A stretch of 64,000 nt of DNA from Actinomycetes bacterium (GCA_021809425.1 JAKBAA010000001.1:26693-90692), one strand, 5' to 3'; positions 7,337-38,746 are shown, counted from the first letter of the stretch. Notes: generated by a model from the sequence alone, not told the origin. Numbers and translations: made by a program.

Positions 7337-7888
7337 CTAGCCGGGCAGGGGGAACTCGGCGAGCAGCGCCTGGTGCTCGGGCTCGAGGTCGACCTCGAGG
7401 GCGGCGAGCATGCGGACGACGGCGTTGTAGAAGGCGATCGTGACCACGAGCTCCACGAGCTGGCGCTCGTCGAGCTCGTCGGCCAGCGCCGTCCACGTCG
7501 TCGGGGTGATCGTCCCCTCGACGGTCAGCTCGGCGGCGGCGGCCAGCCCGGCCTGCTCGAGGGCCGACAGGCCGGACCGCTCGGGGCCGCCCGGGTCGGT
7601 GACGGCGCGGACGTCCGCGGGGAGGAGGCCGTGGGCCATGCCGATGCGGACGTGATGGGAGAACTCGTACGGGCTGCGCGCCGAGGCCCCCACCTGGAGG
7701 ATGGCCAGCTCGCGCAGCCGGGAGGGGAGCGACTGGGCCTCGCGGATCCACATGCCGAGGCCGTGCAGGTGGACCATGGCATCGGGAGCGTTGGCCAGCG
7801 CCTCGAACAGGTTGACCCGGTAGCCGGCGAGCACCGAGCGGGCGGGCTCGGGAAGGTCGTCGGGCTGGACGTACGGGAGGCGTGCCAT
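7337..7888 (-). CDS. carboxymuconolactone decarboxylase (AhpD-like) family protein
   Basis: C-terminal 183 aa of the artefactual ORF 7337..11812. ATG 7888 gives MARLPYVQPDDLPE, followed by SARSPYEFSHHVRIG, which is typical of CMD-family proteins. Confidence 0.8.
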   Translation of the reverse strand: MARLPYVQPDDLPEPARSVLAGYRVNLFEALANAPDAMVHLHGLGMWIREAQSLPSRLRELAILQVGASARSPYEFSHHVRIGMAHGLLPADVRAVTDPGGPERSGLSALEQAGLAAAAELTVEGTITPTTWTALADELDERQLVELVVTIAFYNAVVRMLAALEVDLEPEHQALLAEFPLPG

Positions 7889-7993: not shown

Positions 7994-8743
7994 ATGCTGT
8001 CGGCGGAGGAGAACGACCGGCTCTGCCGGGTGGGGCCGGGGTCGCCGGTCGGGGAGGCGCTCCGGCGGTACTGGGTGCCGGCGTTCCAGCTCGGCGACCT
8101 GCCCGAGCCGGACGCCCCGCCGATCCACGTGCGGGTGCTCGGCCAGGACTTCGTGGCGGTGCGCGACACGTCCGGCCGGTACGGGCTGCTCGACGAGCTC
8201 TGCTGCCACCGCAACGCCTCCCTCGTGTACGGCCGGGCCGAGGACGGCGGGCTGCGCTGCCTGTACCACGGCTGGAAGTACGACCTCGACGGTCGGATCC
8301 TGGAGATGCCCAACTGCGCCGACGACCGGCTGCGGGCCCGGTTCCGCCAGGGTGACGGCTGGACCAACGACCCGACCGAGACCCGCCGCTACCGGCTGCC
8401 GGCCCAGGACCGCCGGGCGATGGCCGTCAGGGCGAGCTACGCCGGGTTCCGTGGCGGCAACCGCCCCCAGGACGCCGCCGTCCAGGGCGTCAACGGTCGG
8501 ACCAGCCGGTTCTCGCGGGCCAACGAGAACCTGGTCCCTGCCGATGCCGCCGTCATCCGGTTCCGCCGCCTCCTCCTCGAGGCGGCCCGGGCCGTCGAGC
8601 ACGGTGGCGAGCCGCCGGCGCGCGGCGAGGGCTTCGACTTCTCCGGCGTGCGGGCAGCCGCCGAGGTGGTCGACGACCGGGCCCCCTGGCAGGATCTCGT
8701 CCCGGGCAACGCCGGCCGGACGGCCACCGCCACCGCCCCCTGA
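7994..8743 (+). CDS. Rieske [2Fe-2S] domain protein, apparently lacking the catalytic core (possible decayed oxygenase)
   Basis: Rieske ligands are present: CCHRNASL and CLYHGWKY. The C-terminal tail is oxygenase-like (ADAAVIRFRRLLLEAA). At 249 aa it has no mononuclear-iron domain. Confidence 0.7.
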   Translation: MLSAEENDRLCRVGPGSPVGEALRRYWVPAFQLGDLPEPDAPPIHVRVLGQDFVAVRDTSGRYGLLDELCCHRNASLVYGRAEDGGLRCLYHGWKYDLDGRILEMPNCADDRLRARFRQGDGWTNDPTETRRYRLPAQDRRAMAVRASYAGFRGGNRPQDAAVQGVNGRTSRFSRANENLVPADAAVIRFRRLLLEAARAVEHGGEPPARGEGFDFSGVRAAAEVVDDRAPWQDLVPGNAGRTATATAP

Positions 8744-8815: not shown

Positions 8816-9667
8816 TTGATCCGCCGCCGCGCCGCCGCCCTCGCCCGTTGCCTCGTGCCCGCCGGCCCCCTCGCCGGCGCGCTCGCCGGCGCGCTCCTTG
8901 CCGTGCTCGTCGCCGTGCCGCCGGCGTTCGCCGCCGGCCGACCCGCAGCGGTGGCGCCGGCGGTCGCGACGCCTGCTGCTGCGCCTGCCGCTTCGGGGCG
9001 GGCCGCGACGGCCGGCGCGCCGCCGGCCGAGGAGGCGATGCTCGACTGCCAGCACCAGCGGGTGGTCACGCCCCGGTCGTTCGTGATCTCGTGCGCCGAC
9101 GCCAACTCGGGCCTGACCGGGCTGTCGTGGGTGGCGTGGAGCCCGGGCGCGGCGGCGGCGACGGGGACGTACACGTACAACACGTGCACCCCGACCTGTG
9201 CCGCCGGCCACGACGTGTCGTACCCTGCGCTCGTCGAGGTGACCGGCGCCCTCCAGACCAATCTCGGGCTCGTCTACACCGGGCTCGCCTGGCAGTACAC
9301 GGCTGGCGGCACGGCCCACCAGATGACCTTTCCGCTGGTGGCGGTGCCCGAGCAGGTGGTCACCTGCGGGCACGCTCCGGTGGTGCGCCCGCCCAGCTAC
9401 GTCGTCGCCTGTGCCGACGGCAACACCCGGCTCGTCGGGCTGACCTGGCAGTCGTGGCAGCTGGGGGTCGCCACGGCCACGGGGACGCTCGTGTCCAACA
9501 CGTGCACGCCCGACTGCGCCGCCGGCCGGTACGTGCGGGCGCCGGTCACCGTCGAGCTGACCGGCGCCGCGGTGGGTCTGCCGGCCGGGCTGCAGTACAC
9601 GGCGATCGACCTCCAGTGGACGACCAACGGCGCCCACCATGCCGTGAGGTTCCCGCTCGCCTCCTAG
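8816..9667 (+). CDS. secreted protein with two tandem ~100-aa four-Cys domains (uncharacterised)
   Basis: TTG 8816 follows GAAGGGAG. There is a hydrophobic signal-like N-terminus. The two repeats align over C..VV.P.S.V..CAD.N..L.GL.W..W..G.A.ATGT...NTCTP.CAAG..V..P..VE.TG. Confidence 0.65.
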   Translation: MIRRRAAALARCLVPAGPLAGALAGALLAVLVAVPPAFAAGRPAAVAPAVATPAAAPAASGRAATAGAPPAEEAMLDCQHQRVVTPRSFVISCADANSGLTGLSWVAWSPGAAAATGTYTYNTCTPTCAAGHDVSYPALVEVTGALQTNLGLVYTGLAWQYTAGGTAHQMTFPLVAVPEQVVTCGHAPVVRPPSYVVACADGNTRLVGLTWQSWQLGVATATGTLVSNTCTPDCAAGRYVRAPVTVELTGAAVGLPAGLQYTAIDLQWTTNGAHHAVRFPLAS

Positions 9668-9730
9668 GCTGGCGCCGGCGTTCGCCTGGCACCCGGCCAG
9701 GATGGCCGGACGAGGGACGAGGGGAGCACC

Positions 9731-10489
9731 GTGACGACCGACGCGACGACGGCGGCAGCAGCAGCGGGGGTGGCGGCGCTCGCCCGGCGGATCACGGAGG
9801 CGCTCGCGCTCGACGATCCGCCGGTCGGCCTGGCCTTCGTCGAGTCCGCCCCGGACGGCGTGCCGGTGTTCGACGGGGTGGTGCCGTCGGCGTGCAGCTT
9901 CTGGCGGGAAGCCCGGTCGGGGACGTTCTTCGCCTCGGCCGCCCAGCACGCCAACTGCGCCGTCGGCAGCCACGTGATGGGCTTCCCGGCCGCTCCCGCC
10001 GTGCAGTCGGCGTTGCAGGAGGCCATCGAGACGATGGGCGCCTGCGGCTACCTCGGTGCCGACGAGCCGGCGCGCATCCCGACGGTGGGGCGCCCGTCGG
10101 CCGGCATCGTGTACGGGCCGCTGGCCGACCTGCCGGTGGCGGCGGACGTCGTCGTGTGCTGGCTGCAGCCGAGCCAGGCGATGCTGCTGCAGGAGGCGGC
10201 CGGCGAGGTCGACTGGACGAACGCCACCCGTCGCGGCCTCTTCGGCCGCCCGGGCTGCGCCGCCCTGCCGCTGGCGATCGCCGACGGCCGGACCGCCCTG
10301 TCGGCCGGGTGCACCGGCATGCGCATCTTCACCGAGGTGGGCGCCGACCGCCTGCTCGCCGTCCTGGCCGGCGCCGACCTCGAGGCGACCACCGCCCGGC
10401 TCGAGGGGGCCCGTCGTGCCAACGAGACGATGGCCGCCTACTACGACGGGCGCCGCCGCGGGCTCGAGGGGGCGGTCACCGGCGCCTGA
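9731..10489 (+). CDS. DUF169 domain-containing protein
   Basis: 252-aa ORF. The segments ACSFWREA, HANCAVGSHVMGF and GCTGMR are DUF169-like (COG2043). Confidence 0.75.
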   Translation: MTTDATTAAAAAGVAALARRITEALALDDPPVGLAFVESAPDGVPVFDGVVPSACSFWREARSGTFFASAAQHANCAVGSHVMGFPAAPAVQSALQEAIETMGACGYLGADEPARIPTVGRPSAGIVYGPLADLPVAADVVVCWLQPSQAMLLQEAAGEVDWTNATRRGLFGRPGCAALPLAIADGRTALSAGCTGMRIFTEVGADRLLAVLAGADLEATTARLEGARRANETMAAYYDGRRRGLEGAVTGA

Positions 10490-11937
10490 GCCGAGCAGCC
10501 GGCCCCGCCCCCGGTACCGACGCCGCCGCGCTGGCGTCCGGTGGGCTCGGCGCAGCAGAACCACGACTCGCTGAGCCGTGGACGCAGCGGACCGGGCGGC
10601 CCGAGGAGGCCGGCCGGGGCCGGCCGGCCGGCGCCGGACCGCCCGAGGACGTCGAGGGCGGTGGCCCGCACCGCCTCGTAGGCCGCCTCGGCGCCGGCTC
10701 CTTCCGCCTCGAGCGTCTCGGCGCAGGCAGCCACGGCCGCCTGGCAGTGGTCGAGCGCCGGGTCGCCCGAAAGCCAGCCGGTGCCACCGGCCTCCGGGTC
10801 GGCGCCGGTCAGTGCGGCGGCGAGGGCCGGGTCGGGCTCGTCGAGCAGGAGCGAGCCGGGCGGGAGGAGCAGCCGGATGCCGTACTGGACGGCGTCGACG
10901 TTCCAGACGAGGTCCTCGGCGGCGACGAAGTCGAGCAGCGCCACCACGTCGTCCCGGGTCGTCCACGGGGTGAACGGCAGGAACGACGGGCGCGGCTCGA
11001 CGCCGCAGCGGCGTAGCAGTCGGACCGCCCGGCGACCGTCGTCGGCCGTGTGGCCCTTGTCGAGCCGGGCCAGCACCGTGTCGCTCGTCGACTCGAGCGC
11101 GCTGATCACGAACCGCATCCCGCAGGTGGCCAGCTCGCCGACGAGGGCCTCGTGGCGGAGCAGGTGGCTCACCTTGATGGTGGCGTCGAAGGTGACGGCC
11201 GGGAAGGTCCCGGCGAGCGCCTGGGCGAACGCCGCCGCGTGGGCGGGCCGGTTGAGGAAGTCGGGGTCGGCAAGGTGCAGGTGGCGCGCCCCCTCCGCCA
11301 CGAGGGCGGCGGCGTCGGCCATCACCGCCTCGAGGGCGACCGCCCGGGACCGCCCGCCGTAGACGGCCGGGACCGGGCAGTGGCGGCAGCGGTGGTTGCA
11401 GCCGGTCGAGCTCTCGAGGGTGCCGACGAGGCGGGTCTCGCCGTCGACGTGCAGCACGGCGTAGGCGTCGAGGCCGGGTAGGCCGGCGCGGGCCTGGGCC
11501 GGGCGCGGGCCGGGCCGGGCCGGGCCGAGGGTCCGCCTGCGCCTCGGGCCGTCGGCTGCCGGGCGACCGAGCCGGTCGGCCCAGGCGACCAGCTCGGCGG
11601 CCACCTCCCCGCTCGCCGCCACGTCGCCCGGCCCGAGCAGGTCGGCGGCGGCGTCGGCGGCGGCCTCGGCGTACAGGCCGTGGAGGAACAGCGGCAGTTC
11701 GGGCCGCTCGGCCCGCAGCCGCTCGACCACGCCCAGGCCGAGCCGCCAGGCGGTGTGCATCGGGACCGACAGCACCACGCCGTCCACCTCGGCCAGCCGG
11801 TCGGCCGGCCACGGCTCGACCGCCAGGTCGACCGCCACTGCCCCGTGGCCGGCGGCCCCCAGGTGGGCGGCCGGCACCGTGCAGCCGAGCGGCCGGGCAC
11901 CGAGCTCGTAGGTGGACAGCAGCAGGAGCCGGCTCAC
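10441..11937 (-). CDS. CCAEP-tail radical SAM protein (B12-binding-like N-domain plus radical SAM core)
   Basis: CxxxCxxC is present as CNHRCRHC. The C-terminal motif is WFCCAEP (10543-10557). GTG 11937 overlaps the stop of the upstream ATP-grasp gene (GTGA). Confidence 0.85.
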   Translation of the reverse strand: MSRLLLLSTYELGARPLGCTVPAAHLGAAGHGAVAVDLAVEPWPADRLAEVDGVVLSVPMHTAWRLGLGVVERLRAERPELPLFLHGLYAEAAADAAADLLGPGDVAASGEVAAELVAWADRLGRPAADGPRRRRTLGPARPGPRPAQARAGLPGLDAYAVLHVDGETRLVGTLESSTGCNHRCRHCPVPAVYGGRSRAVALEAVMADAAALVAEGARHLHLADPDFLNRPAHAAAFAQALAGTFPAVTFDATIKVSHLLRHEALVGELATCGMRFVISALESTSDTVLARLDKGHTADDGRRAVRLLRRCGVEPRPSFLPFTPWTTRDDVVALLDFVAAEDLVWNVDAVQYGIRLLLPPGSLLLDEPDPALAAALTGADPEAGGTGWLSGDPALDHCQAAVAACAETLEAEGAGAEAAYEAVRATALDVLGRSGAGRPAPAGLLGPPGPLRPRLSESWFCCAEPTGRQRGGVGTGGGAGCSAQAPVTAPSSPRRRPS

Positions 11938-13214
11938 GCCACCGGCCCCGCCGGCTCCACCTGGCCCGCCGGCTCCACCTGGACGTCCAGCTCGCCGTGG
12001 GCGGCGCGCAGTGCCGCCTCGACCTCCTCCGGGGTGTCGCCCCGAGCGAACAGGAACCCGAGGTAGCGGTCGCCGTCCGGCAGCATCTCGATGGTGCCGC
12101 CCACCGGGGTGCTCAGCTCGAGCGCCGTGACGCCGGGCGCCTTGGCCGCCCGGTCGCGCCCGCCGACGGCCACGAGGCGACCGGAGGCCGGGATGGGCAG
12201 CATCATGACGCCGCTGGCCCCGCCGGCGGGCGCCGTGGCGAGCGGGCGACCGAGGGCCTGGGCGAGCACCAGCTCCTCGAGCGACCCGCCGGTGGCGAAG
12301 CGCAGCGCCGAAGCGCACCGCCCCCCGATGGTGCGGGCCGCCACCTCGAGCACCACCGGCTCCGTGTCCGGGCCGGGTGGCAGGCGGAGCTCGGCGTGGA
12401 CCGGGCCGTCGGTCAGCCCGAGCGCCGTGGCGGCGGCCTGCGCCGTGGCGGCGATCGCTGCCTGCACCTCGGGGGCGTGCCGCGACGGGGTGACGTAGAT
12501 GGTCTCCTCGAAGTACGGCCCGACGAGCGGGTCCGGCTTGTCGAACAGCGCCAGCACGGTGAGCCGGCCGTCGTCGACCAGCCCCTCGAGGGCCACCTCG
12601 TCCCCGTCCACGTACCGCTCGACGACGAGCCGCCGGGGCTCGCCGATCCGGTCGAGCAGCGCGATCACCCGGGCTGCCGCCTGCCGGACCTGCCGGGGGT
12701 CGTCGGCCCGGATGACCCCCCGGCTAGCCGACAGGCCCGGCGGCTTCACCACGACGGGGGGGCCGAGCCGGCAGGCCCGCTCGACGGCCCGCTCGACCAC
12801 GGCCTCGACGGCTTCGCCCGGCTCGGCGGCGCAGGCGGCGAAGTCCGGCTGGCGCACCCCGGCGGCGGCCAGCAGGTGGCGCATGGCCACCTTGTCCCGG
12901 GTGACGGCCACGGCCGCCGGCGGGTGGTGGCGAAGGCCGAGCCCGGCGGCGGCGAGGGCGGCGGCCAGCAGGCCCTGGTCGTCGACCGCGACGACGGCGT
13001 CGACCGGGTGGGCGGCAGCGAACGCCTCGATGGCGGCGGCCGCCGCCGGCGGATCGTCGAGCGGGATCTCGACGAACCGGTCGCCCATCACCTCGGCCAG
13101 CAGCTGGCGGCGCTCGGACGCCACCGTCAGGGCCACGCCGAGGCGGTCGGCGGCCGCCAGGAACGCCTCCGCCCGGTAGGTGGCCGTGGGCACGAGCAGC
13201 ACGACGCGCGACAT
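11934..13214 (-). CDS. ATP-grasp domain protein (L-amino-acid-ligase-like)
   Basis: ATG 13214 gives MSRVVLLV. The ATP-grasp segments are VVVKPPGLSASRGV, VVERYVDGDEVALEG and VLEVAARTIGG. Confidence 0.8.
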   Translation of the reverse strand: MSRVVLLVPTATYRAEAFLAAADRLGVALTVASERRQLLAEVMGDRFVEIPLDDPPAAAAAIEAFAAAHPVDAVVAVDDQGLLAAALAAAGLGLRHHPPAAVAVTRDKVAMRHLLAAAGVRQPDFAACAAEPGEAVEAVVERAVERACRLGPPVVVKPPGLSASRGVIRADDPRQVRQAAARVIALLDRIGEPRRLVVERYVDGDEVALEGLVDDGRLTVLALFDKPDPLVGPYFEETIYVTPSRHAPEVQAAIAATAQAAATALGLTDGPVHAELRLPPGPDTEPVVLEVAARTIGGRCASALRFATGGSLEELVLAQALGRPLATAPAGGASGVMMLPIPASGRLVAVGGRDRAAKAPGVTALELSTPVGGTIEMLPDGDRYLGFLFARGDTPEEVEAALRAAHGELDVQVEPAGQVEPAGPVA

Positions 13215-13282
13215 CGCCCACCATTGTGACGGTTCCACGCCACTGCGGACGCGCCCCCCTCCCCGCCCCGTACCATGGGCAG

Positions 13283-13933
13283 GTGACCCCTCCCGACCTG
13301 CCAGGCGACGGCCCGCAGCCGTTGCTGTCGATCACCGAGGCCGCCCTCGCCGCCGTCCTGGCGGCACGTGACGGCGAGCCCGAGCCGGCCGGCCTGGGCC
13401 TGTTCGTCGAGGTTGCCGGCACGAGCAACGGGGCGTACACCTACGACCTGTGGTTCGAGGCGGCCCGGGACGCCGGCCCTGGCGACCACGTCGATCACCA
13501 CGGCGACCTTGCGGTGGTCGTCCAGGAGGGCAGCGCCGAGCGCCTGGCCGGCGCCACGCTCGACGTGGGGAGCAGCGGCCTCGTCGTGCTCAACCCGAAC
13601 ACGCCGCCCCCCGAGCCGGGCGCCGTCGACCTGGCCGCGCTCGGCACCCTCGACGGTCCGGTCGCCGACGCCGTGCGGCGGGTGCTCGCCGAGGAGGTCA
13701 ACCCGCAGATCGCCGGTCATGGCGGGCGGGCCGATCTCGTCGGCGTCGACGACGAGGGTGTCGCCTACCTCGTCCTCTCCGGTGGCTGCCAGGGCTGCGG
13801 GCTGGCGTCGGTGACCCTCAGCCAGGGGATCGCCGTGGCCATCCAGGACGCCGTCCCCGAGGTGCAACGCGTCGTCGACGTCACGGCCCACGCCGAGGGT
13901 GCCAACCCGTTCTACGAGGCCGCCAAGAAGTGA
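13283..13933 (+). CDS. NifU/Nfu-type Fe-S cluster protein
   Basis: The C-terminal Nfu domain reads VNPQIAGHGGRADLVGVDD..VLSGGCQGCG. The N-terminal domain is A-type-like and lacks Cys. The start is uncertain: GTG 13283 or GTG 13226. Confidence 0.75.
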   Translation: MTPPDLPGDGPQPLLSITEAALAAVLAARDGEPEPAGLGLFVEVAGTSNGAYTYDLWFEAARDAGPGDHVDHHGDLAVVVQEGSAERLAGATLDVGSSGLVVLNPNTPPPEPGAVDLAALGTLDGPVADAVRRVLAEEVNPQIAGHGGRADLVGVDDEGVAYLVLSGGCQGCGLASVTLSQGIAVAIQDAVPEVQRVVDVTAHAEGANPFYEAAKK

Positions 13934-14079
13934 CCTGCGGCGGCCCCGGGACGGGCCGCCCGCCGATGCCGCCCGCCGCCACCATCCCGGGCCACCGGCA
14001 GCCCTGCCGTACGCGTTGCGGTCGAGGGACGCCGCAGCCGTCCCGCGAGCCCCCGGTCGTCGCCGCTCGCGCCGCTGCC

Positions 14080-14675
14080 GGGCTGCTGGCGGACAATTTC
14101 CTCGACCTCGCCCACTTGCCGTTCGTCCGTGCGGCCACCCTCGGCGCCGGAGCGCCGGTGGTGCCGCCGCTCGAGGTCCGCGGCGACGGATGGTCGTTCA
14201 TGGCGGGCAGCGAGCACGAGCTCCTCAACCGCGAGGACCCCGGCGTGGCGGCGGGGACCCGCCCGCTGCGCCAGCGCCGGCGGGTCACCTGTCGGGTGAG
14301 CGCCCCGTTCCACCTGGTGCTGCGCCCCGACTTCCTCGATGCCGGCGGCACCAACGTGATCGGGTTCTTCCTCCAGCCCGAGACCGCCGACCATTGCCGG
14401 ATCCAGTGCACGCTGTGGCGCGACGACCTCGACGGCGACCCGGCCCGAACGGCCGTGGCGGTGGCCTTCGAGGAGGCCGTCCTCGCCGAGGACCTTGCCG
14501 TCCAGGAGGCCTACGACGAGCGCAGCCTGCCGCTCGAGCCGACGGCGGAGGTCCACACGCGAGCCGACGGTCGACGATCGAGCCGCGTCGCCTGCTCGCC
14601 GACCTCATCGCCGCCGCCCGCCAGGAGCCACCCGGCTCGCGCGGCGCCGGGGGAGGGGCCGGTGTGCGAGGGTGA
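14080..14675 (+). pseudogene. remnant of a VanA/KshA-type Rieske oxygenase catalytic domain
   Basis: The segment LLADNFLDLAHLPFVRAAT carries the DNxxDxxH iron motif, but the following conserved His is Arg. There is no Rieske domain upstream. The reading frame shifts near 14565-14575 (..EVHTRADG / STIEPRRLLADLIAAARQE*). Confidence 0.55.
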
Positions 14676-14707
14676 GGGGAGGGGCGACCGACAGGAGGCG
14701 AGAGCCG

Positions 14708-20822: not shown

Positions 20823-21733
20823 CGGCACGACCGCGCGTCGGCGCCATCGAGGCCGGCGGGACGAAGATGGTCTGCGGCGTCGGCCGCACCCTGGAAGAGC
20901 TGCTCGACCCGTCCAGCCAGGCGGTCGTCCCGACCGGGCCCGACCCCCGGGCCACCTGGGCCGAGGTGCGAGACTTCTTCGTCGGGGCCGGGCCGGTGGA
21001 CGCCCTCGGTGTGGCCTCGTTCGGCCCGCTCGACCTGGACGCCGGCACGATCGTCAGCACGCCGAAGGCCGGCTGGGACGGCTTCTCGTGGCGCGAGCGG
21101 GCGAGGGAGCTGACCGGGGGGCCCCTCGTGCTCGACAGCGACGTCGACGCCGCCGCCCTCGCCGAGTGGCACCACGGGGCCGCACGGGGCGCCGCGGTGG
21201 CGGTGTACGTCACGGTCGGCACCGGGATCGGCGGCGGCTGCGTGCTCGACGGCCGGGTGCTGCGCGGCCGGCGCCACCCCGAGATGGGCCACCTGCGGCT
21301 CCGCCGCCGCCCCGGGGACGAGGCGGCGAGCACCTGCCCGTACCACGACGACTGCTGGGAGGGCCTCGCCTCCGGCGAGGCGATGCGCCGCCGCCACGGC
21401 AGCCGGGCCGAGGAGCTGCCCGCCGACCATCCGGGCTGGGCGGTCGAGGCCGACTACCTCGGTCTCGGCGTGGCCGACCTGCTCGTGACGCTGGCCCCCG
21501 ACCGGCTCGTGCTGGGTGGCGGCGTGCTGGCCCACCCCGGGCTGCTGGAGGACGTCCGCCGTCACGCCGGCGCCCACCTCAACGGCTACGCCGGCCTCGG
21601 CCGGACGGGCGAGGGGGGGACCGGACCGCTCGACGACCTCGTCGTCGCTCCCGGGCTCGGATCGCGTGCCGGTCTCGTCGGCGCCTTCGAGCTGGCCGTC
21701 CGAGGGCTCGACGGCAGCCCCCCGACCGGCTAG
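20819..21733 (+). CDS. ROK family sugar kinase (fructokinase/glucokinase-like)
   Basis: GTG 20819 overlaps the upstream stop (GTGA). The segments GAIEAGGTKMVCG and VTVGTGIGGG match ROK proteins, and the Zn motif is HPEMGH...CPYHDDCWEG. Confidence 0.85.
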   Translation: MTARPRVGAIEAGGTKMVCGVGRTLEELLDPSSQAVVPTGPDPRATWAEVRDFFVGAGPVDALGVASFGPLDLDAGTIVSTPKAGWDGFSWRERARELTGGPLVLDSDVDAAALAEWHHGAARGAAVAVYVTVGTGIGGGCVLDGRVLRGRRHPEMGHLRLRRRPGDEAASTCPYHDDCWEGLASGEAMRRRHGSRAEELPADHPGWAVEADYLGLGVADLLVTLAPDRLVLGGGVLAHPGLLEDVRRHAGAHLNGYAGLGRTGEGGTGPLDDLVVAPGLGSRAGLVGAFELAVRGLDGSPPTG

Positions 21734-22311
21734 CCGCCCTCGCCCTCGCCCTCGCCCTCGCCCCCGCCCTCGCCCTCGCCCTCGCCCCCGCCCTCGCCCT
21801 CGCCCCCGCCCCCGCCGTCGGTGCCGTCGGTCGGCTCGACCTGGTAGAGCTCGAGGTGGAACCGGACGGCGCCGAGCGGGACGACCCGGTGCGGGACGCC
21901 GGGCGGCACGGCAGCCCGCTCGCCGGCGACCAGCTTGCGCTCGAGCGGCGGTGGCTGGCCGATGGTCGGCGCCGACAGCACGAGATCGCCTTCCTCGACG
22001 ACCACCTCGCCCCAGGTCGTCGGGCCGAGCCGGTGGTCGTCGCGCAGGCGCTCCGGCATGGAGCGCTCGTCCCAGCTCGGCGTGCGGCGCGCCGCCAGGG
22101 CGGCCTCAGGCAGCTCTCCCCGGTCGCACAGCGGGCACGACAGGGGCGTGCCGAGGTGCTCGTGCCGCCCGCCAGCCTCGCGCACCCAGGGGTGGACGAC
22201 GAAGGGCGGTCGGTGGCGGACGTGCTGGCGGTGCCCGCAGGCGAGGTGGGCCACCCAGTCGCCCTCCTCGTCCCGGTGGTAGCCGACGATGAGCCGTTGC
22301 ATCGCTGCCAC
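21730..22311 (-). CDS. DUF3565 / DUF1971 (TehB-like cupin) fusion protein with a (Gly-Glu)n tail
   Basis: The N-terminal part GYHRDEEGDWVAHLACGHRQHVRHRPPF is DUF3565-like. The central part MPERLRDDHRLGPTTWGEVVVEEG is DUF1971-like. An alternative start is ATG 22302. Confidence 0.7.
   Translation of the reverse strand: MAAMQRLIVGYHRDEEGDWVAHLACGHRQHVRHRPPFVVHPWVREAGGRHEHLGTPLSCPLCDRGELPEAALAARRTPSWDERSMPERLRDDHRLGPTTWGEVVVEEGDLVLSAPTIGQPPPLERKLVAGERAAVPPGVPHRVVPLGAVRFHLELYQVEPTDGTDGGGGGEGEGGGEGEGEGGGEGEGEGEGG
21734..21816. repeat. hexanucleotide repeat (CCCTCG/CCCCCG)n encoding the GE-rich tail
   Basis: Direct reading of the sequence. It lies inside the 3' end of the 21730..22311 CDS. Confidence 0.9.
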
Positions 22312-22341
22312 CGTAGCCAGGGCGATGGCCGACTCCCGGGC

Positions 22342-29222: not shown

Positions 29223-29263
29223 AGTGGTCAGCTCGCCGGAGGGCGGCGGCGGGAGGGCGGCGG

Positions 29264-30184
29264 GTGAACGGGGACGTGGTGCTCGGCAGTGCCCTCGTCG
29301 GGCTGCTGGTCGGGCTGACGGGGGCGGGCGGCGGTGCGTTGATGACGCCGATGCTGACCCTCCTCTTGTCGGTCAAGCCGTCAGCCGCCATCTCGTCCGA
29401 CCTCGTGGCAGCGGTGTGCATGCGCCCGTTCGGGGCCGCCGTGCACCTTCGGCGCGGCAACGTCAACGGGCGCCTCGTCGCCTGGCTTGCGGTCGGGTCG
29501 GTGCCGGCGGCGGTCGCCGGCACGGCGCTGCTGCACGTGCTCGGGGCGGCGAGCGGCGCCCCGGCCGCGCTCGAGCTGGCGCTCGGGACGGCGCTGCTGG
29601 CGGGGGCGGCGGCGATGGTGCTGCGCCACGAGCTCGACCGGCGTTCGGGCCGCCGGCGCGACCAGCGGCTGGACGAGCTCGCCGTCCGCCCGTTCCTGAG
29701 CGTGGCGGTGGGTGCCGTCGGCGGCCTCGTGGTGGGGACGACGTCGGTGGGCGCCGGCAGCCTGATGACGGTGCTGCTGCTGTTCGTCTACCCGTGCATC
29801 GGGGCGCGGGCGCTCGTCGGGACCGACCTGGCACAGGCCATCCCGCTGTCGCTGGCGGCCGCGGCCGGGGCGCTGGCGTTCGGCCACGTGGCGCTCGGCT
29901 TGACGGCGGCGGTCGTGGTGGGCAGCGTGCCGGCGGTCGTGGTGGGCGCCCTCTGTTCGTCGCGCCTTCCCGACGCCGCCGTGCGCCCGGCCATGGCGCT
30001 GGCTATACTGGCGTCTGGGTGCAAGTATATAGGGTTGGGGCCGGCGCCGCTCATGGTGGTGGTGGCCGGTGCCGCGGCCGTCGCCGGGTCGGTCGCCCTG
30101 TGGCGGCGGCGCGGCCCGTCGGGTGGCCTTCGCCTCGCCGGCGCTCCGGCCGACGGGGAGCTGGGCGAACTGGCCGGTCGCTGA
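29264..30184 (+). CDS. sulfite exporter TauE/SafE family membrane protein
   Basis: Polytopic membrane protein with LTGAGGGALMTP and GVGAGSLMT repeats, typical of TauE/SafE. Confidence 0.85.
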   Translation: MNGDVVLGSALVGLLVGLTGAGGGALMTPMLTLLLSVKPSAAISSDLVAAVCMRPFGAAVHLRRGNVNGRLVAWLAVGSVPAAVAGTALLHVLGAASGAPAALELALGTALLAGAAAMVLRHELDRRSGRRRDQRLDELAVRPFLSVAVGAVGGLVVGTTSVGAGSLMTVLLLFVYPCIGARALVGTDLAQAIPLSLAAAAGALAFGHVALGLTAAVVVGSVPAVVVGALCSSRLPDAAVRPAMALAILASGCKYIGLGPAPLMVVVAGAAAVAGSVALWRRRGPSGGLRLAGAPADGELGELAGR

Positions 30185-30486
30185 AGCTGGCCACCTGGCC
30201 GGCCGTGGTGCGGCGCGGCTACACTTCCCGGCCGACGAAGCCCTCGTGCCCCGAGGAGGTGAGCCAGGTTGAGATCCGAGCCCCCCAGTAACTGGCCGCT
30301 CCGCGGCGCGTCCGGCCCGTCGTCTCGTTGAGACGGCGCTGATCCGAGGGCGCTGAGCCGGCGGCTCCGGGCGGCGCTTGCTCCGCCACCGCCGCGCCGA
30401 CCGCGGAGCGCACCACGCCGGCACCCGTGCGATGGCACGGCCGTGCCGGTCGTCCCGTGCCCGTCGGTTGTCCCGGAGGTCGTCCC

Positions 30487-32232
30487 ATGTCCCGCGCCCG
30501 CCCGCCCGTCGCGTCCCGCGGCGTCCCACGTCTCCGCCGCCCCCAGGCGACCTCGGCCCCTGCCGCCCTCGACACCGCCGGCGCCGCCGTCCTCGACACC
30601 GCCGGCGCCGCCGTCCTCGACACCGCCGGCGCCGCCGTCCTCGACACCGAGCACGTCGGCGACATCCGGGGCGCGCTCGGCACGATCGGCCGAGCCGACC
30701 TCGGGCCCCGACCGGCGATGTCGGCCAAGCTGAAGACGCTGCTCGCCATCGTCGGGCCCGGCCTCATCGTGATGGTGGGCGACAACGACGCCGGGGCGTT
30801 CAGCACGTACGGGCAGGCCGGCCAGAGCTTCGGGACGCACCTGCTGTGGACGCTGCTGCTGCTGGTGCCGGTGCTGTACGTGAACCAGGAGATGGTGCTG
30901 CGCCTCGGGGCGGTGACCGGGGTGGGGCACGCCCGACTGATCCTCGAGCGCTTCGGCAAGGTGTGGGGCGCCTTCTCGGTGATCGACCTGTTCGTGCTGA
31001 ACGCCCTCACGATCGTGACCGAGTTCATCGGGGTGACGCTCGCCACCGGCTACCTCGGCGTGCCGAAGGTCCCGGCGGTGGTGCTGGCCGGGCTGCTCGT
31101 TGTCGGCGCGGCGAGCACGGGGAGCTTCCGGCGGTTCGAGCGGATCTGCCTGACCCTCGTCGCCGGGTCGCTGCTGCTGCTGCCCATCTACCTGCTCGTC
31201 CACCCGAGCGTCGGCCAGATGGCGCACGGGCTGCTCGTGCCGGGGCTCCCGAAGGGCCAGCTGTCGACGGTGATGCTGCTCGTGATCGCCATCGTCGGGA
31301 CGACGGTGGCACCGTGGCAGCTGTTCTTCCAGCAGTCGTACGTCATCGACAAGCGGATCACGCCGCGCTTCATCCGCTACGAGCGGGTCGACCTGTGGCT
31401 CGGCATCGCCGTCGCCGTGGCGGGCGGCGCCGCCATGATCGGCTTCTCGGCCGCTGCTGCCGGCGGGCACGGGACGCCGTTCACCAATGCCGCCGGGGTG
31501 GCTGCCGCCCTCGGCCGGCACGCCGGGCGGATCGCCGGGGACCTGTTCGCCGTGGCGCTGCTCGACGCCAGCATCATCGGTGCCTGTGCCGTCAGCCTGT
31601 CGACGGCCTACGCCACAGCGGACGTGCTCGGGGTGAACCACTCGTTGCACCGCCCGGTGACCAAGGCGAAGGGGTTCTACGTCTGCTACGCCGGGCTGGT
31701 CGCCGCCGCCGGGGCGATCGTGCTCGTCCCGGGCGCCCCGCTCGGCCTGCTCACCGAGGGCGTCCAGACGCTCGCCGGCGTGCTGCTTCCGAGCGCCACG
31801 GTGTTCCTGCTGCTGCTGTGCAACGACAAGGCCGTGCTCGGCCCGTGGGTGAATTCGCGGTGGCTCAACGCCTTCACGGCTGCCGTCGTCTGGGTGCTGC
31901 TCCTGCTGTCGGTGGTGCTGACGGCGAGCGTGCTGTTCCCGGCGATCAGCGGGCGGGCGATCGTCGCCATCCTCGTCGGCGGCGCCATCCTCGGGATGGC
32001 GCTCGGTGCCTTCGTGGCGCTGTCGGCCCGGCGGGCCCCCGTCGGGGTGGCCGACGTCGTCACCGAGGTGACGCCGGGGCGTCGCGCCACCTGGCGGATG
32101 CCGGCGCTCAGCCTGCTGGAGCAGCCCCTGCTCAACCGGCAGCGCAAGGCGGGGCTCCTGGCGCTCCGGCTCTACCTGCTCGTGGCGTTCGCCCTCGTCA
32201 TCGTGAAGGTCGTCCAGGTCGCCGTCCGCTAG
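30487..32232 (+). CDS. NRAMP (SLC11) family transporter with non-canonical metal-site residues
   Basis: The core from 30718 aligns to MntH (GPGLIVMVGDNDAGAFSTYGQAG; IVGTTVAPWQLFF). ATG 30487 was chosen because GGAGG lies 7 nt upstream and GC3 is high. An alternative start is ATG 30718. Confidence 0.8.
   Translation: MSRARPPVASRGVPRLRRPQATSAPAALDTAGAAVLDTAGAAVLDTAGAAVLDTEHVGDIRGALGTIGRADLGPRPAMSAKLKTLLAIVGPGLIVMVGDNDAGAFSTYGQAGQSFGTHLLWTLLLLVPVLYVNQEMVLRLGAVTGVGHARLILERFGKVWGAFSVIDLFVLNALTIVTEFIGVTLATGYLGVPKVPAVVLAGLLVVGAASTGSFRRFERICLTLVAGSLLLLPIYLLVHPSVGQMAHGLLVPGLPKGQLSTVMLLVIAIVGTTVAPWQLFFQQSYVIDKRITPRFIRYERVDLWLGIAVAVAGGAAMIGFSAAAAGGHGTPFTNAAGVAAALGRHAGRIAGDLFAVALLDASIIGACAVSLSTAYATADVLGVNHSLHRPVTKAKGFYVCYAGLVAAAGAIVLVPGAPLGLLTEGVQTLAGVLLPSATVFLLLLCNDKAVLGPWVNSRWLNAFTAAVVWVLLLLSVVLTASVLFPAISGRAIVAILVGGAILGMALGAFVALSARRAPVGVADVVTEVTPGRRATWRMPALSLLEQPLLNRQRKAGLLALRLYLLVAFALVIVKVVQVAVR
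30567..30649 (+). repeat. perfect 24-bp tandem repeat x3.5 (CCTCGACACCGCCGGCGCCGCCGT)
   Basis: Direct reading of the sequence. It is in frame with the NRAMP ORF and encodes (LDTAGAAV)n. Confidence 0.95.
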
Positions 32233-37794: not shown

Positions 37795-37807
37795 GCGCCC
37801 TCCTCGC

Positions 37808-38746
37808 TCAGCCCGCCCGCCGGGTCGTCGCAGCCTTGCGGTGGGCGACCTCGTCGAGCCAGTTGGCGAGCAGGCGCACCATCGGCGGCCGCCAGGTGGC
37901 GTCGAGGCCGGCAGCGCACGCCTCGAAGGGGAACGCGTCCGCCAGGCCCGACGGGCGCCCGATGGCCCGAAGGCGGAAGTCCCGGAGGCGGGCGGCGCCG
38001 CTGGCCGGGAGGTAGCCGGAGGGCAGCTCGGGGTACTTGTCCTGCTCACCGGCCAGGTAGCGGCGCACGTCACGCCGGTACTCCCGCAGCAGCGTCGTGG
38101 CGTCGTACTCGGGGTGCCCCTGGAGCAGCAGGCGGAGGCAGCCGTCGTCGCGGGCGGCGACCGTCCAGCCGACGGTGTCCGACCCGGCCAGCACCTGATA
38201 GCCGCTCGCCTCGAGGTCGGCTGGGGTGACGTCGTGCAGGCGCGAGTGCGGGCAGGCGACGGGGCCGACGTCCCGGGTGAGCCGGTGGGTGGCGTCGACC
38301 CACTGGGGGAACACCCCGCTCAGCTTCTGCGGCAGCCGCCGCCGCTCGACGCCGTCGCCGGCGAGGAGGGCACCGTGGGCGGCGAGGCACGACAGGGCAA
38401 CCGAGTGGGTCGACTGCTTCGCCCAGTCGAGCAGCGACGAGAGGGAAGCCCAGGTCGGCTCCTCGCGCAGGTCGCGACAGCGGGGCTCGCTGCCCGTGAC
38501 GACGAGGGCATCGGGCGGCCGGCGCTGCAGGTCCTCAACGGCCTCGTAGCGCCCGTCGAGCTCGTGGCGCACGCCGTCCCCCCGGCCGGGATCCGGGAGC
38601 GAGGTCAGGCGCAGCACGAACGGCCGCCCGCCCGCCGCCGCCTCGAGCAGGTCACGAAACTGGCGCTCGGTCGCCAGGAAAGCGGCGTCGGGCATGTTGT
38701 TGACGAGCGCCACCTCGACGGCGGCCGGCCGCGAGCCCATCGTCAC
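37808..38746 (-). CDS. metA: homoserine O-acyltransferase, MetA family
   Basis: The sequence aligns with E. coli MetA. LVNNMPD corresponds to ILNLMPKK, the nucleophile Cys lies in LSCLAAH, and PHSRL and GHPEYD are present. GTG 38746 overlaps the upstream stop (GTGA). Confidence 0.85.
   Translation of the reverse strand: MTMGSRPAAVEVALVNNMPDAAFLATERQFRDLLEAAAGGRPFVLRLTSLPDPGRGDGVRHELDGRYEAVEDLQRRPPDALVVTGSEPRCRDLREEPTWASLSSLLDWAKQSTHSVALSCLAAHGALLAGDGVERRRLPQKLSGVFPQWVDATHRLTRDVGPVACPHSRLHDVTPADLEASGYQVLAGSDTVGWTVAARDDGCLRLLLQGHPEYDATTLLREYRRDVRRYLAGEQDKYPELPSGYLPASGAARLRDFRLRAIGRPSGLADAFPFEACAAGLDATWRPPMVRLLANWLDEVAHRKAATTRRAG

Follow-up and report, generated by a model that had tools for sequence, protein, structure and literature searches.

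An amino-acid-ligase-type ATP-grasp gene coupled to a CCAEP-tail radical SAM gene from a sister family of ArsL

To our knowledge, reductive cleavage of SAM to a 3-amino-3-carboxypropyl (ACP) radical is known from just two enzymes, ArsL and Dph2, and ArsL has so far been regarded as a one-off. Three further systems serve as background here. NfuA re-loads the iron-sulfur clusters of LipA and MiaB, thioredoxin reductases show interchange of Cys-Sec and Cys-Cys at a vicinal C-terminal pair, and the ATP-grasp enzymes RimK and LysX modify the C-termini of proteins. In ArsL, the CCxxC motif is the As(III)-binding site and the enzyme makes no 5'-deoxyadenosyl (5'-dA) radicals (10.64898/2026.04.29.721666). 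More generally, the vicinal CC/CU motif has been described as a recurrent heavy-metal-binding signature (Haft & Gwadz, bioRxiv 10.1101/2022.07.06.499078).

We examine a locus in a window of 64,000 nucleotides (the whole stretch of DNA that was analysed, from an Actinomycetes bacterium) whose radical SAM enzyme falls, as judged by sequence, in the much larger sister family of ArsL, a family with no assigned reaction. A sequence-only reading of the same DNA had described this CUAEP/CCAEP-tail family as lacking an assigned reaction, and the sole mention of it that we find in the literature does term it uncharacterised. The same reading knew of no described pathway that pairs such an enzyme with an ATP-grasp ligase; our search agrees, since no paper found in the searchable literature describes the pairing, and we find no published function for the module.

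Layout of the locus

The locus consists of four genes, all at the coordinates first assigned to them. The features referred to below, with positions counted from the first letter of the window, are as follows.

9731-10489, plus strand: DUF169 protein, 252 aa, a convergent accessory gene (PF02596)
10441-11937, minus strand: CCAEP-tail radical SAM enzyme, 498 aa (NF040546)
10441-10512, minus strand: C-terminal extension of the radical SAM enzyme, non-conserved and predicted to be disordered; its last 49 nt (10441-10489) overlap the DUF169 gene
10543-10557, minus strand: CCAEP motif, C461-P465 (in WFCCAEPT, residues 459-466), a proposed acceptor-binding or redox site
11377-11400, minus strand: CX3CX2C motif (C180-N-H-R-C184-R-H-C187), ligands of the radical SAM [4Fe-4S] cluster
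11934-11937, minus strand: GTGA overlap of the ATP-grasp stop (TGA, 11934-11936) and the radical SAM start (GTG, 11935-11937)
11934-13214, minus strand: L-amino-acid-ligase-type ATP-grasp, 426 aa, first gene of the operon (ATPgrasp_N + ATP-grasp_4 + LAL_C2)
13220-13226, minus strand: candidate -10 box (cAATGGT), 6-12 nt 5' of the ATP-grasp ATG; the box recurs across related loci
13226/13283-13933, plus strand: NfuA-like protein, divergent (NifU domain, NfuA-type matches)
13787-13798, plus strand: CQGC motif of the NfuA-like protein (residues 188-191), predicted to be cluster-binding

Read directly, the minus strand at the junction of the ATP-grasp and radical SAM genes is ...CCG GTG GCG TGA / GTG AGC CGG..., which bears out the GTGA stop/start overlap on which the sequence-only reading had based co-translation of the two genes. 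The pair is operonic and tightly coupled both here and in most relatives: the same 4-nt NTGA overlap occurs in 15 of 63 loci with the same gene order, and in about 52 of the 63 the gap lies between -16 and +62 nt. At the other end of the operon, the radical SAM stop (TAG, 10441-10443) sits 49 nt within the 3' end of the DUF169 gene (TGA, 10487-10489), so that the convergent 49-nt overlap is likewise present in the sequence. The start of the Nfu gene is ambiguous, either GTG 13226 or GTG 13283; homology begins near residue 33-36, GTG 13283 is the likely start, and with it the proposed divergent gap of about 70 nt to the ATP-grasp gene is plausible.

An assembly chimera is ruled out: the 4.25-kb stretch is near-complete in four independent metagenome runs, whose contigs retain 97-99% of it (in sampled words). 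DNA of the window occurs in metagenomes from mine drainage and from mine tailings.

Upstream of the ATP-grasp gene, we find a recurrent pattern in 72 related loci, where position -11 is A in 74%, position -8 is A in 67% and position -7 is T in 71%; the resulting A-N3-T box is present in 60 of the 72, versus 6 of 72 in a control window. A consensus sigma-70 scan gives no match, and the window's own box is shifted by one base relative to that of the related loci. Because the candidate box lies so close to the ATG, the operon mRNA is probably leaderless or near-leaderless.

The radical SAM enzyme and its relation to ArsL

Profile searches match all four proteins to the families that the sequence-only reading had named. 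The radical SAM enzyme matches NF040546, 'CUAEP/CCAEP-tail radical SAM (seleno)protein', across profile positions 2-466 of 468 with 445.4 bits (E 2.2e-133), against an NCBI curated equivalog cut-off of 500, and is a divergent high-GC member of this family; many of its close homologues carry the bare NCBI name 'radical SAM protein'. The protein is composed of a Rossmann-like N-domain, a radical SAM core and a C-terminal domain. The CX3CX2C motif is invariant in alignments A1 and A2, and all 20 of the aligned homologues keep the C-(C/U)-A-E-P tail motif, where E457, W459, C461, C462, A463, E464, P465, T466 and Q469 do not vary and F460 is near-invariant (Y in some relatives). This leaves five invariant cysteines, the three cluster ligands and the tail pair, and a three-Cys site for an auxiliary cluster is not obvious among them. 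In many relatives the second Cys of the motif is selenocysteine (UGA), with at least 139 UGA forms carrying a SECIS-like hairpin, and the Cys/Sec interchange together with the covarying hairpin suggests that the second tail Cys is chemically active.

The AlphaFold2 model of the enzyme has a pLDDT of 89.9. At the CCAEP motif the confidence is still about 86-87, and the model predicts an ordered, packed motif rather than a flexible tail; residues 476-496 have a pLDDT below 50, and the tails beyond CCAEPTxxQ differ in both length and sequence between relatives. The nearest solved fold is AprD4 (6FD2, TM 0.62-0.68, 17% identity in the fold match), and the folds of MiaB and RimO also resemble the model.

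By sequence, the second match of the enzyme is the ArsL model NF040542, with 210.8 bits over profile positions 2-377 of 423 (cut-off 450), and the next family follows at 45 bits. The enzyme and ArsL are 30% identical over their full length and have many invariant residues in common. MAFFT aligns C461, across a gapped region, under the first Cys of the ArsL CCLKC; the three-Cys RCCLKC tail itself is absent, and CCAEP places Pro at the position of the third ArsL Cys. On this comparison the enzyme belongs to a sister family of ArsL. There is no ArsM, ArsQ, ArsN1 or ArsR near the window locus, in contrast to the true ArsL loci L207, L214 and L215. In ArsL-type (RCCLKC) clusters on B. cereus and Alicyclobacillus plasmids, an LAL-type ATP-grasp sharing all three domains of the window ligase stands beside ArsM, ArsN1 and ArsR; such clusters also encode, directly 5' of the ligase, small proteins of the CMD family whose sequences end in CCE or CCK.

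Some members of the CUAEP/CCAEP family stand in organometal contexts. One (P0465) is fused to a MerB domain, and in loci L130 and L209 the radical SAM gene has a MerB gene as its immediate neighbour. The operon of L153 runs from the CUAEP radical SAM gene through DUF169 and a UbiE methyltransferase to HgcAB-like proteins, L156 is the same without DUF169, and in L210 the radical SAM gene is surrounded by ArsR regulators, a ligase-GNAT fusion, a decarboxylase and an exporter. These contexts are few and fall in the other clade of the family, 37-41% identical to the window enzyme; the window holds no mer, hgc or ars genes, and an unbiased census of 150 + 150 neighbouring ORFs shows no enrichment of metal regulators or transporters. 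Every point of the sequence-only reading that could be put to the test held up; what it had missed were the ArsL kinship and the selenocysteine forms, the links to MerB, HgcAB-like proteins and ArsR, and the alternative partners YggX, DsrE-like and DUF3109 described below.

Partner proteins and conservation of the module

Among solved structures, the ATP-grasp protein is nearest by sequence to the L-amino acid ligase BL00235 (3VOT, E 2.7e-30, residues 22-411). It has the full LAL-type domain set and conserved putative ATP/Mg residues: K108, K157, E199, E206, E275, E290 and R294 are invariant in alignment A6, and we infer that they sit at the usual catalytic (ATP/Mg-binding) positions. Its profile is that of a free-amino-acid ligase, closest to BL00235 and BacD, in a large unnamed family of its own with at least 8000 database proteins, which are labelled only 'ATP-grasp domain-containing protein' or 'biotin carboxylase'. 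The gaps in the core (63, -4 and 11-68 nt) leave no space for a precursor-peptide ORF, as was first proposed, about 200 related loci likewise show no small ORF that is conserved, and the locus has no precursor-peptide gene beside its modifying enzymes of the kind that marks a RiPP cluster. Given a core without room for a precursor and a ligase of LAL type, the earlier preference for a small-molecule substrate over a RiPP is retained.

The Nfu protein matches PF01106 (NifU, 65.5 bits, E 4.8e-18) and, over profile positions 3-190 of 190, TIGR03341 (NfuA, 86 bits against an equivalog cut-off of 269). It has the C-terminal NifU domain with CXXC that defines the NfuA type and is a distant NfuA relative of the same architecture. 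The divergent placement of Nfu and ATP-grasp noted at first sight proves to be conserved: of the 28 Cys-form loci with full flanks, 26 show it. Other lineages place Nfu elsewhere, and in some YggX joins the pair. Most of the related loci with sufficient flank have such an Fe-S or Fe helper, be it Nfu or YggX, together with the pair.

The DUF169 protein matches PF02596 with 63.9 bits (gathering cut-off 27, E 2.5e-17) and has invariant residues C55, H73, C76, C176, C194 and R198; its AlphaFold2 model (pLDDT 92.5) finds no fold match in the PDB (best E 0.24, TM 0.22). For three of six sampled DUF169 homologues, a CCAEP radical SAM gene is found no more than 2 kb away. DUF169 is a recurrent, not universal, accessory of this neighbourhood. 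The slot after the radical SAM gene is filled by one of three small Cys-bearing proteins: DUF169, a DsrE-like protein (convergent, in 15 loci) or a DUF3109/Rv0495c-like protein (the third operon gene, in 17 loci). Rv0495c has been linked to redox homeostasis (bioRxiv 10.1101/2023.08.22.554105).

How general is the pairing itself? In 47 of 55 related loci with at least 4.5 kb of flank, an ATP-grasp gene is found no more than 5 kb from the radical SAM gene and mostly adjoins it directly, which answers the question of recurrence raised by the sequence-only reading. The pairing occurs in both Cys (CCAEP) and selenocysteine (CUAEP) forms, spans phyla and both family clades, and sampling from the ATP-grasp side returns the triad in 2 of 2 look-ups. 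Several gene orders are seen: ATP-grasp>rSAM, rSAM>ATP-grasp, rSAM>Nfu>ATP-grasp, and a separated yet divergent Nfu/ATP-grasp pair. Relatives of the radical SAM enzyme are present in at least 588 GTDB species and number in the thousands among metagenomic proteins; many are selenoproteins. Chance does not explain the adjacency. In Acidimicrobiia the triad lies within a conserved core-genome housekeeping region, beside aroC-aroK-aroB-efp, and part of the recurrence is therefore shared descent; in one lineage aconitase and G6PD flank the module.

A possible reaction and its rivals, and comparison with known systems

The module probably makes an unusual amino acid and then a dipeptide from that amino acid. 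The reading we prefer, to which we give somewhat less than an even chance, is an ArsL-like reaction in which the 3-amino-3-carboxypropyl group of SAM passes to a soft heteroatom bound at the Cys-Cys pair, and the product is then ligated into a dipeptide. The radical SAM enzyme would cleave SAM to methylthioadenosine and the ACP radical, a chemistry ascribed to it only on its 30% identity to ArsL, and would attach ACP to a heteroatom on its C-terminal Cys-Cys pair (Cys-Sec in relatives), giving 2-amino-4-(X)-butanoate, an amino acid that resembles methionine or glutamate and in which X may be a thiophilic metal(loid) or persulfide sulfur or selenium. The coupled ligase would join this product to a second amino acid to form the dipeptide, although the two steps could run in either order. 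Nfu (YggX in some lineages) would keep the oxygen- and metal-sensitive [4Fe-4S] cluster loaded, and DUF169 would deliver or remove the acceptor or re-reduce the Cys pair. In favour of this reading count the ArsL kinship, the Cys/Sec interchange, the free-amino-acid type of the ligase, its recurrence in ArsL-type clusters, the conservation of the module, the organometal contexts within the family, the mine metagenomes and the lack of room for a precursor ORF. Several observations sit awkwardly with it: the third As-binding Cys of ArsL is missing, the segment of about 60 residues before the motif is without an ArsL counterpart, the organometal contexts are few and lie in the other clade, the census of neighbouring ORFs shows no metal enrichment, and it is difficult to see why an enzyme that makes C-metal bonds should be fused to one that breaks them (MerB). 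Within the window clade, the partners (Nfu, DUF3109/Rv0495c-like, DsrE-like) and the aroC-aroK-aroB-efp setting point to redox or sulfur housekeeping over metal handling. The wider proposal, that CUAEP/CCAEP-tail enzymes form a large class of carbon-heteroatom bond-forming enzymes that has gone unnoticed, we regard as rather unlikely as it stands. In it they would, like ArsL, transfer the ACP group of SAM, but to a non-arsenic element on a Cys-Cys or Cys-Sec pair, and with the ligase they would yield an organo-element amino acid and its dipeptide. Its candidate elements are mercury, another thiophilic metal(loid), selenium and sulfur, and its hosts would be hundreds of aerobic soil and mine species of Actinomycetota, Chloroflexota and others.

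An alternative that is unlikely, yet deserves serious weight, is a canonical 5'-deoxyadenosyl-radical enzyme acting on the amino acid or dipeptide of the ATP-grasp, by sulfur insertion or another radical step. The sulfur source would be sacrificial or a relay, with Nfu rebuilding the cluster; the Cys-Cys or Cys-Sec pair would carry a persulfide or supply reducing equivalents; and the product would be a thiol dipeptide, for example a low-molecular-weight thiol for redox or Fe-S homeostasis. The recurrent Fe-S and sulfur-relay partners (NfuA-like, Nfu, YggX, DsrE-like) suit such a scheme, as do the DUF3109/Rv0495c-like third gene, the aconitase and G6PD flanks, the core-genome synteny in Acidimicrobiia and a fold that resembles MiaB and RimO as well as AprD4. 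However, the five invariant cysteines offer no obvious auxiliary-cluster site, ArsL, an enzyme without 5'-dA radicals, is the nearest family by a wide margin, and the aconitase/YggX/G6PD setting is probably the synteny of one lineage.

We consider it improbable that the tail Cys pair is a redox shuttle like that of thioredoxin reductase, re-reduced by DUF169, DsrE-like or DUF3109 and driving a net reductive radical reaction (an AprD4-like dehydration or reduction) on an amino-acid-derived substrate. Such a shuttle would account for the Cys-Sec/Cys-Cys interchange at a vicinal C-terminal pair and for the three different Cys-bearing proteins in the following slot, and AprD4, a cobalamin-independent radical SAM diol dehydratase, is the nearest solved fold. 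But the motif is predicted to be packed instead of sitting on a flexible tail, the sequence is much nearer to ArsL than to AprD4, and the MerB fusion and HgcAB-like operons are left unexplained.

A protein or peptide target is very unlikely: the ATP-grasp would ligate an amino acid onto the rSAM tail, Nfu or a carrier, or a ribosomal peptide encoded at a distance would be matured. RimK/LysX-type ATP-grasps set a precedent, translational coupling suits a stoichiometric complex, and CCE- or CCK-ending proteins precede the ligase in ArsL-type clusters; against this stand the LAL architecture with LAL_C2 aligned end to end with BL00235, the absence of a conserved small ORF in or beside the core, and the variable, disordered tails past CCAEPTxxQ. 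That the genes adjoin by inherited synteny alone, with no functional link, fits the housekeeping setting in Acidimicrobiia and is still highly improbable, for the pairing outlasts rearrangement into several gene orders, spans phyla and both clades, and recurs in the sister ArsL family.

The preferred ArsL-like reading takes the locus as one copy of a small-molecule module that is widely conserved and passed on vertically. The conserved partners of the radical SAM family are now defined (the ligase, the Fe-S/Fe helpers and three interchangeable Cys-bearing proteins), its physical links to MerB and HgcAB-like proteins are now shown, and both DUF169 and a very large, unnamed family of amino-acid ligases gain a first clue to their function. 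It raises the question of whether radical formation of C-metal(loid) or C-chalcogen bonds extends beyond arsenic, and may be relevant to how metal(loid)s are cycled in the microbiomes of mines and soils.

How, then, does the locus compare with described systems? With the L-amino acid ligases (BL00235, BacD/YwfE, RizA, TabS, DdaF) the ATP-grasp shares the domains ATPgrasp_N, ATP-grasp_4 and LAL_C2, whereas its identity to any characterised ligase is at most about 30% and, unlike them, it has a gene translationally coupled to that of a radical SAM enzyme. With organomercurial systems (MerB, the C-terminal Cys-Cys of MerA, HgcAB, Haft's SAO locus) the family shares the vicinal CC/CU motif, and some of its members are fused or adjacent to MerB or lie in HgcAB-like, UbiE-type operons; unlike those systems, the window is without mer or hgc, and such contexts are rare and confined to the other clade. 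Compared with the NfuA/Nfu carriers that serve radical SAM enzymes (LipA, MiaB), the Nfu protein resembles NfuA in its C-terminal NifU domain with CXXC and its Cys-less A-type-like N-domain, and its gene is linked to a radical SAM gene; in contrast to the NfuA system, YggX accompanies the ATP-grasp/radical SAM pair in some other lineages.

From ArsL the window enzyme differs in having two thiolates (CCAEP) to the three of CCLKC, about 60 extra residues before the motif with no ArsL counterpart, and selenocysteine forms in its family; the window and most related loci lack ars genes, and the partners are Nfu, YggX, DUF169, DsrE-like or DUF3109 instead of ArsM and ArsQ. Like ArsL, it combines a Rossmann-like N-domain, a radical SAM core with CX3CX2C and a C-terminal vicinal Cys pair, and the ArsL-type clusters of Bacillus and Alicyclobacillus, like the window module, also hold an LAL-type ATP-grasp.

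A four-gene locus and its surroundings

The sequence-only reading had described four genes in the window, whose base composition is about 75% G+C. Their positions stand, and HMM assignment of the four proteins, which that reading had proposed as a check, gives the following features:

9731-10489, + strand: DUF169 protein (PF02596, E 2.5e-17, HMM scan)
10441-11937, - strand: CCAEP-tail radical SAM enzyme (NF040546, 445 bits, E 2e-133, whole profile covered)
11934-13214, - strand: ATP-grasp enzyme of the L-amino-acid-ligase (LAL) type (ATPgrasp_N, ATP-grasp_4 and LAL_C2, HMM scan)
13226-13933, + strand: NfuA-like protein (Cys-less A-type-like N-domain, NifU domain with CQGC, HMM scan)
within 13215-13245, - strand: -10-like box cAATGGT, the window copy being one base out of register

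Although the 445 bits of the radical SAM enzyme fall below the curated NCBI cut-off of 500, its motif and full-length sequence alignment show it to be a member of the CUAEP/CCAEP family, in which CUAEP is the selenocysteine (Sec) form and CCAEP the Cys form. Direct reading of the minus strand gives CCG GTG GCG TGA and, in the next frame, GTG AGC CGG, so that the stop of the ATP-grasp gene and the start of the radical SAM gene have GTGA in common; this overlap had been claimed before, as had the 49-nt overlap at the other end of the gene, and both are there (the radical SAM stop lies 49 nt within the DUF169 end). The open frame of the radical SAM gene comprises 625 codons and extends upstream of 11937, but we place the start at 11937 because the N-termini of 20 homologues coincide there. 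The conserved -10-like box just upstream speaks for 13214 as the start of the ATP-grasp gene. For the Nfu gene the start may be either 13226 or 13283, with homology from about residue 33-36.

In 72 related loci, an A-N3-T box directly precedes the ATP-grasp start codon 60 times, as against 6/72 in a control window, positions -11, -8 and -7 being A, A and T in 74%, 67% and 71%, respectively. Conservation of this box implies that the ligase/radical SAM operon would be transcribed leaderless in most lineages. Scans for sigma-70 and terminator consensus sequences gave zero matches in this 77% G+C stretch, and inspection of the Nfu/ATP-grasp intergenic regions by eye revealed the -10-like box and no conserved palindromic operator. 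Contigs from four independent metagenome runs, each of them from mine drainage, contain the 4.25-kb stretch nearly whole, and the related runs come from mine tailings; partial matches to 9700-13950 occur in sediment, soil and wastewater runs. Every run with the sequence is metagenomic DNA, and no RNA-seq run was found for the organism.

Several other features lie around these genes. Upstream of DUF169 by 63 nt, on the same strand, is a gene for a 283-aa protein (8816-9667, +) whose N-terminus resembles a signal peptide and which contains two internal repeats, each bearing conserved Cys (…CADxN…L.GL.W…NTCTP.CAAG…). Pfam gives no match for it, the related loci contain no homologue, and it is not tied to the module elsewhere. 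The CMD-family gene at 7337-7870 likewise shows no association with the module in other loci. Two partial Rieske-oxygenase genes sit on either side of the five-gene block, one at 7994-8743 (+; 249 aa, a Rieske domain and LigXa_C-like end without a catalytic domain) and one at about 14020-14700 (+; a VanA_C catalytic domain without a Rieske domain), and may be pseudogenes or rearrangement remnants. Elsewhere in the window are a DUF3565+DUF1971 protein (21730-22341, -), a TauE/SafE-type exporter with an Nramp transporter after it (29225-32232, +), and a PLP enzyme of Cys/Met metabolism whose N-terminal extension is long (36508-38319, -).

Conservation of the ligase/radical SAM module

Searching one genome per GTDB species, we find a relative in at least 588 species. 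The best 80 loci belong to Acidimicrobiia, Thermoleophilia/Solirubrobacterales, other Actinomycetota and Chloroflexota MAGs, and at least 120 further metagenomic loci match the DNA pattern W-(F/Y)-C-UGA-A-E-P-T. We then class loci by motif, requiring at least 4.5 kb of flank on both sides and counting genes within 5 kb of the motif.

Neighbour counts by motif class
WFCC, 28 loci: ATP-grasp 26, Nfu 26, YggX 0
WFCU, 21 loci: ATP-grasp 16, Nfu 14, YggX 4
WYCU, 5 loci: ATP-grasp 4, Nfu 0, YggX 4
WYCC, 1 locus: ATP-grasp 1, Nfu 0, YggX 0

Overall an ATP-grasp gene is near the motif in 47/55 loci, so the adjacency on which the sequence-only reading had staked its claim is conserved. The arrangement varies: Nfu may be divergent from an ATP-grasp/radical SAM pair (Nfu< ATP-grasp> rSAM>), YggX may converge on the ligase (rSAM> ATP-grasp> YggX<), Nfu may lie between the two (rSAM> Nfu> ATP-grasp>), or the Nfu/ATP-grasp pair may be detached and still divergent. 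Among the 63 loci whose ligase gene comes before the radical SAM gene, the gap is -16 to +62 nt in about 52, and 15 have the identical 4-nt overlap. Starting from the ATP-grasp side recovered the same triad in 2/2 look-ups. The ligase and radical SAM enzyme thus form a conserved operonic module, accompanied by helpers of the Fe-S or Fe type and by a Cys-bearing partner that varies.

De novo ORF clustering and two Pfam censuses (150 ORFs each) gave no other enriched neighbours beyond lineage-specific synteny (aroC/aroK/aroB, RNase D, aconitase, G6PD); YggX, aconitase and G6PD surround the module in one Sec-form lineage. Several clustering 'families' proved to be antisense-frame artefacts and were dropped.

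The variable partner often occupies the slot after the radical SAM gene, which in the window holds DUF169 instead of one of the following:

L001 9421-10272, L201 11497-12198 and 15 other loci: DUF3109/Rv0495c-like gene
L020 9473-9838 and 14 other loci: DsrE-like gene

The first, on the same strand, fills the slot in 17 loci of the window's closest relatives; in M. tuberculosis, Rv0495c has been linked to redox homeostasis (bioRxiv 10.1101/2023.08.22.554105). The second lies beside the radical SAM gene in 15 Thermoleophilia-type loci and converges directly on its 3' end in 14 of them. DUF169 itself is within 5 kb in roughly one fifth of loci, at varying positions, and three of six independently sampled DUF169 homologues have a CCAEP radical SAM gene less than 2 kb away (L209, L210, L212). 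Its invariant residues are four Cys, one His and one Arg; its model (pLDDT 92.5) has no significant fold match, and its sequence no match, in the PDB.

Kinship with ArsL

The second-best NCBIfam model for the window radical SAM enzyme is ArsL, the radical SAM enzyme of arsinothricin biosynthesis, at 211 bits, and the next family scores 45 bits. A true ArsL from a Pseudomonas amygdali ars/AST cluster is 30% identical to it over the full length. The family forms two clades, both ~30% identical to ArsL: the window enzyme joins Acidimicrobiia at 52% identity and is 37-41% identical to the other clade. Sequence comparison shows the family to be sister to ArsL. In ArsL, the three Cys of CCLKC bind As(III), onto which SAM's 3-amino-3-carboxypropyl (ACP) moiety is moved (bioRxiv 10.64898/2026.04.29.721666; 10.1101/2024.02.01.577332); MAFFT places the window Cys pair under CCLKC, via a gapped region.

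Invariant in 20 homologues are the cluster Cys C180, C184 and C187 and a block comprising E457, W459, C461, C462, A463, E464, P465, T466 and Q469, and the alignment holds no additional invariant Cys. In the AlphaFold2 model (pLDDT 89.9) the CCAEP stretch is predicted to be ordered, at about 86-87, and residues 476-496, below 50, form a predicted-disordered, non-conserved tail, which is the part overlapping DUF169. The closest solved fold is AprD4 (TM 0.62-0.68), then TsrM, OxsB and MiaB. This match agrees with a review, which notes that a Rossmann-like domain is present, but cobalamin is not bound, in ArsL homologues and AprD4 (PMC12931638). We rejected cobalamin dependence; a weak B12-binding match (E 0.0046) is probably just a Rossmann-like domain.

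The Sec forms are, on the evidence of their sequences, genuine, and many of the best 80 'genome' loci are Sec and not Cys forms. A SECIS-like 7-bp hairpin with an AGUUN loop and compensatory changes begins 15 nt past the UGA (L017-L072, L081-L200; e.g. L017, L021, L035). On the Thermomicrobium roseum DSM 5159 megaplasmid NC_011961.1 (L206, 8422-9858), the RefSeq gene WP_012643191.1 is annotated to end at ...ESWFC, which is the Sec codon; its neighbours encode a PLP aminotransferase and an MFS transporter, and an ATP-grasp gene is absent.

An end-to-end alignment joins the ligase to BL00235 (3VOT, E 2.7e-30), itself an L-amino acid ligase, and the match to BacD is weaker. Its family is very large and has no name. 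K108, K157, E199, E206, E275, E290 and R294 are invariant, also in the ligases of ArsL-type clusters. At the N-terminal position BL00235 favours Met or Leu, a preference that would suit a methionine-shaped ACP-derived amino acid, and we take this analogy as a lead. ArsL-type (RCCLKC-tail) clusters on two plasmids, with ArsM, ArsN1, ArsR or ACR3, include a ligase with the same three Pfam domains (22-24% identity to the window ligase, E about 1e-20). In both, a CMD-family protein of roughly 100 aa ending in CCE or CCK directly precedes the ligase gene:

L214 614-2142 (Bacillus cereus pBFR_2): CMD-family protein and ATP-grasp
L215 1635-3185 (Alicyclobacillus pAACI01): CMD-family protein and ATP-grasp

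A CobW-type GTPase and a 126-aa protein are also common to both. Both families therefore show the combination of an ArsL-family radical SAM enzyme and a LAL-type ligase, and we found no discussion of it in the literature.

What the module may do

The sequence-only reading held that the family has no assigned reaction and that its pairing is undescribed. A literature search agrees: it returned no function for the CUAEP/CCAEP family or for its pairing with an ATP-grasp ligase, and the sole paper found to mention the family calls it uncharacterised (Haft & Gwadz 2022).

Our tentative reading, which we rate somewhat short of probable, is ACP radical chemistry as in ArsL followed by dipeptide ligation. 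The radical SAM enzyme would yield an ACP radical, as ArsL does; ACP would be bonded to a soft atom held by the Cys-Cys or Cys-Sec pair, and the ligase would build a dipeptide from the amino acid so formed. The cluster would be maintained by Nfu or YggX, and DUF169, the DsrE-like protein or DUF3109 might relay the acceptor or reducing equivalents.

Candidate acceptors are suggested by a few neighbourhoods, all in the clade without the window enzyme. In the metagenomic protein P0465 (JGI metagenome 3300047160), a CCAEP radical SAM enzyme is naturally fused to a MerB (alkylmercury lyase) domain (E 1.2e-14); its 8.3-kb contig also carries a second MerB gene and a carbamoyltransferase. L130 has, in order, an aminotransferase, a WelO5-like oxygenase, MerB (E 4e-25) and a CUAEP enzyme, and genes for DUF169 and an MFS transporter are close by. 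In L209, two MerB genes and an ArsR-type regulator accompany DUF169 and the radical SAM gene. In L153 (1069-5293) a CUAEP gene is followed by DUF169, a UbiE-type methyltransferase and an HgcAB-like fusion with an NVWCAA-type cap-helix motif. L156 (8558-11901) is similar, and in L208 (2198-6762) DUF169 is linked to the methyltransferase/HgcAB-like pair and a P-type ATPase. The fusions in these three loci have a corrinoid domain with NVWCAA/DVWCAA and a ferredoxin end, and together with the methyltransferase they are in one operon with a CUAEP radical SAM gene, DUF169 or both. L210 has the look of a biosynthetic cluster for a small molecule: besides the radical SAM gene and DUF169 it carries two ArsR genes, a ligase-GNAT fusion, an exporter and a PLP decarboxylase. 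Queries with ArsR, MerB, P-type ATPase, decarboxylase and GNAT against all loci matched only in the few loci named here, and the two unbiased censuses (150 ORFs each) gave no metal-gene enrichment among neighbouring ORFs. The MerB, HgcAB-like and ArsR contexts point to a thiophilic metal(loid) as acceptor; sulfur or selenium and redox housekeeping are suggested by the DsrE-like, Nfu and Rv0495c-like partners and by the place of the module in the core genome of Acidimicrobiia.

Those sulfur-related partners can also be set beside canonical 5'-deoxyadenosine chemistry with sulfur insertion, giving a thiol dipeptide, which we consider rather unlikely given the kinship with ArsL. A reductive reaction with the Cys-Cys or Cys-Sec tail as a redox shuttle, which DUF169, the DsrE-like protein or DUF3109 would re-reduce, seems to us distinctly improbable. 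Still less do we expect a protein or peptide target: the module is shown to contain no precursor peptide, for which the earlier reading had rightly seen no room. That the genes share no functional link is barely credible, as the variable gene order argues for function over mere shared descent.

With ACP transfer and ligation as the favoured reading, we class the module as one that combines ArsL-type radical chemistry with LAL-type ligation, and it raises the question of whether elements other than arsenic also receive ACP by radical transfer. A pair of thiolates fits a linear ligand field of the Hg(II) type, whereas ArsL has three for As(III).
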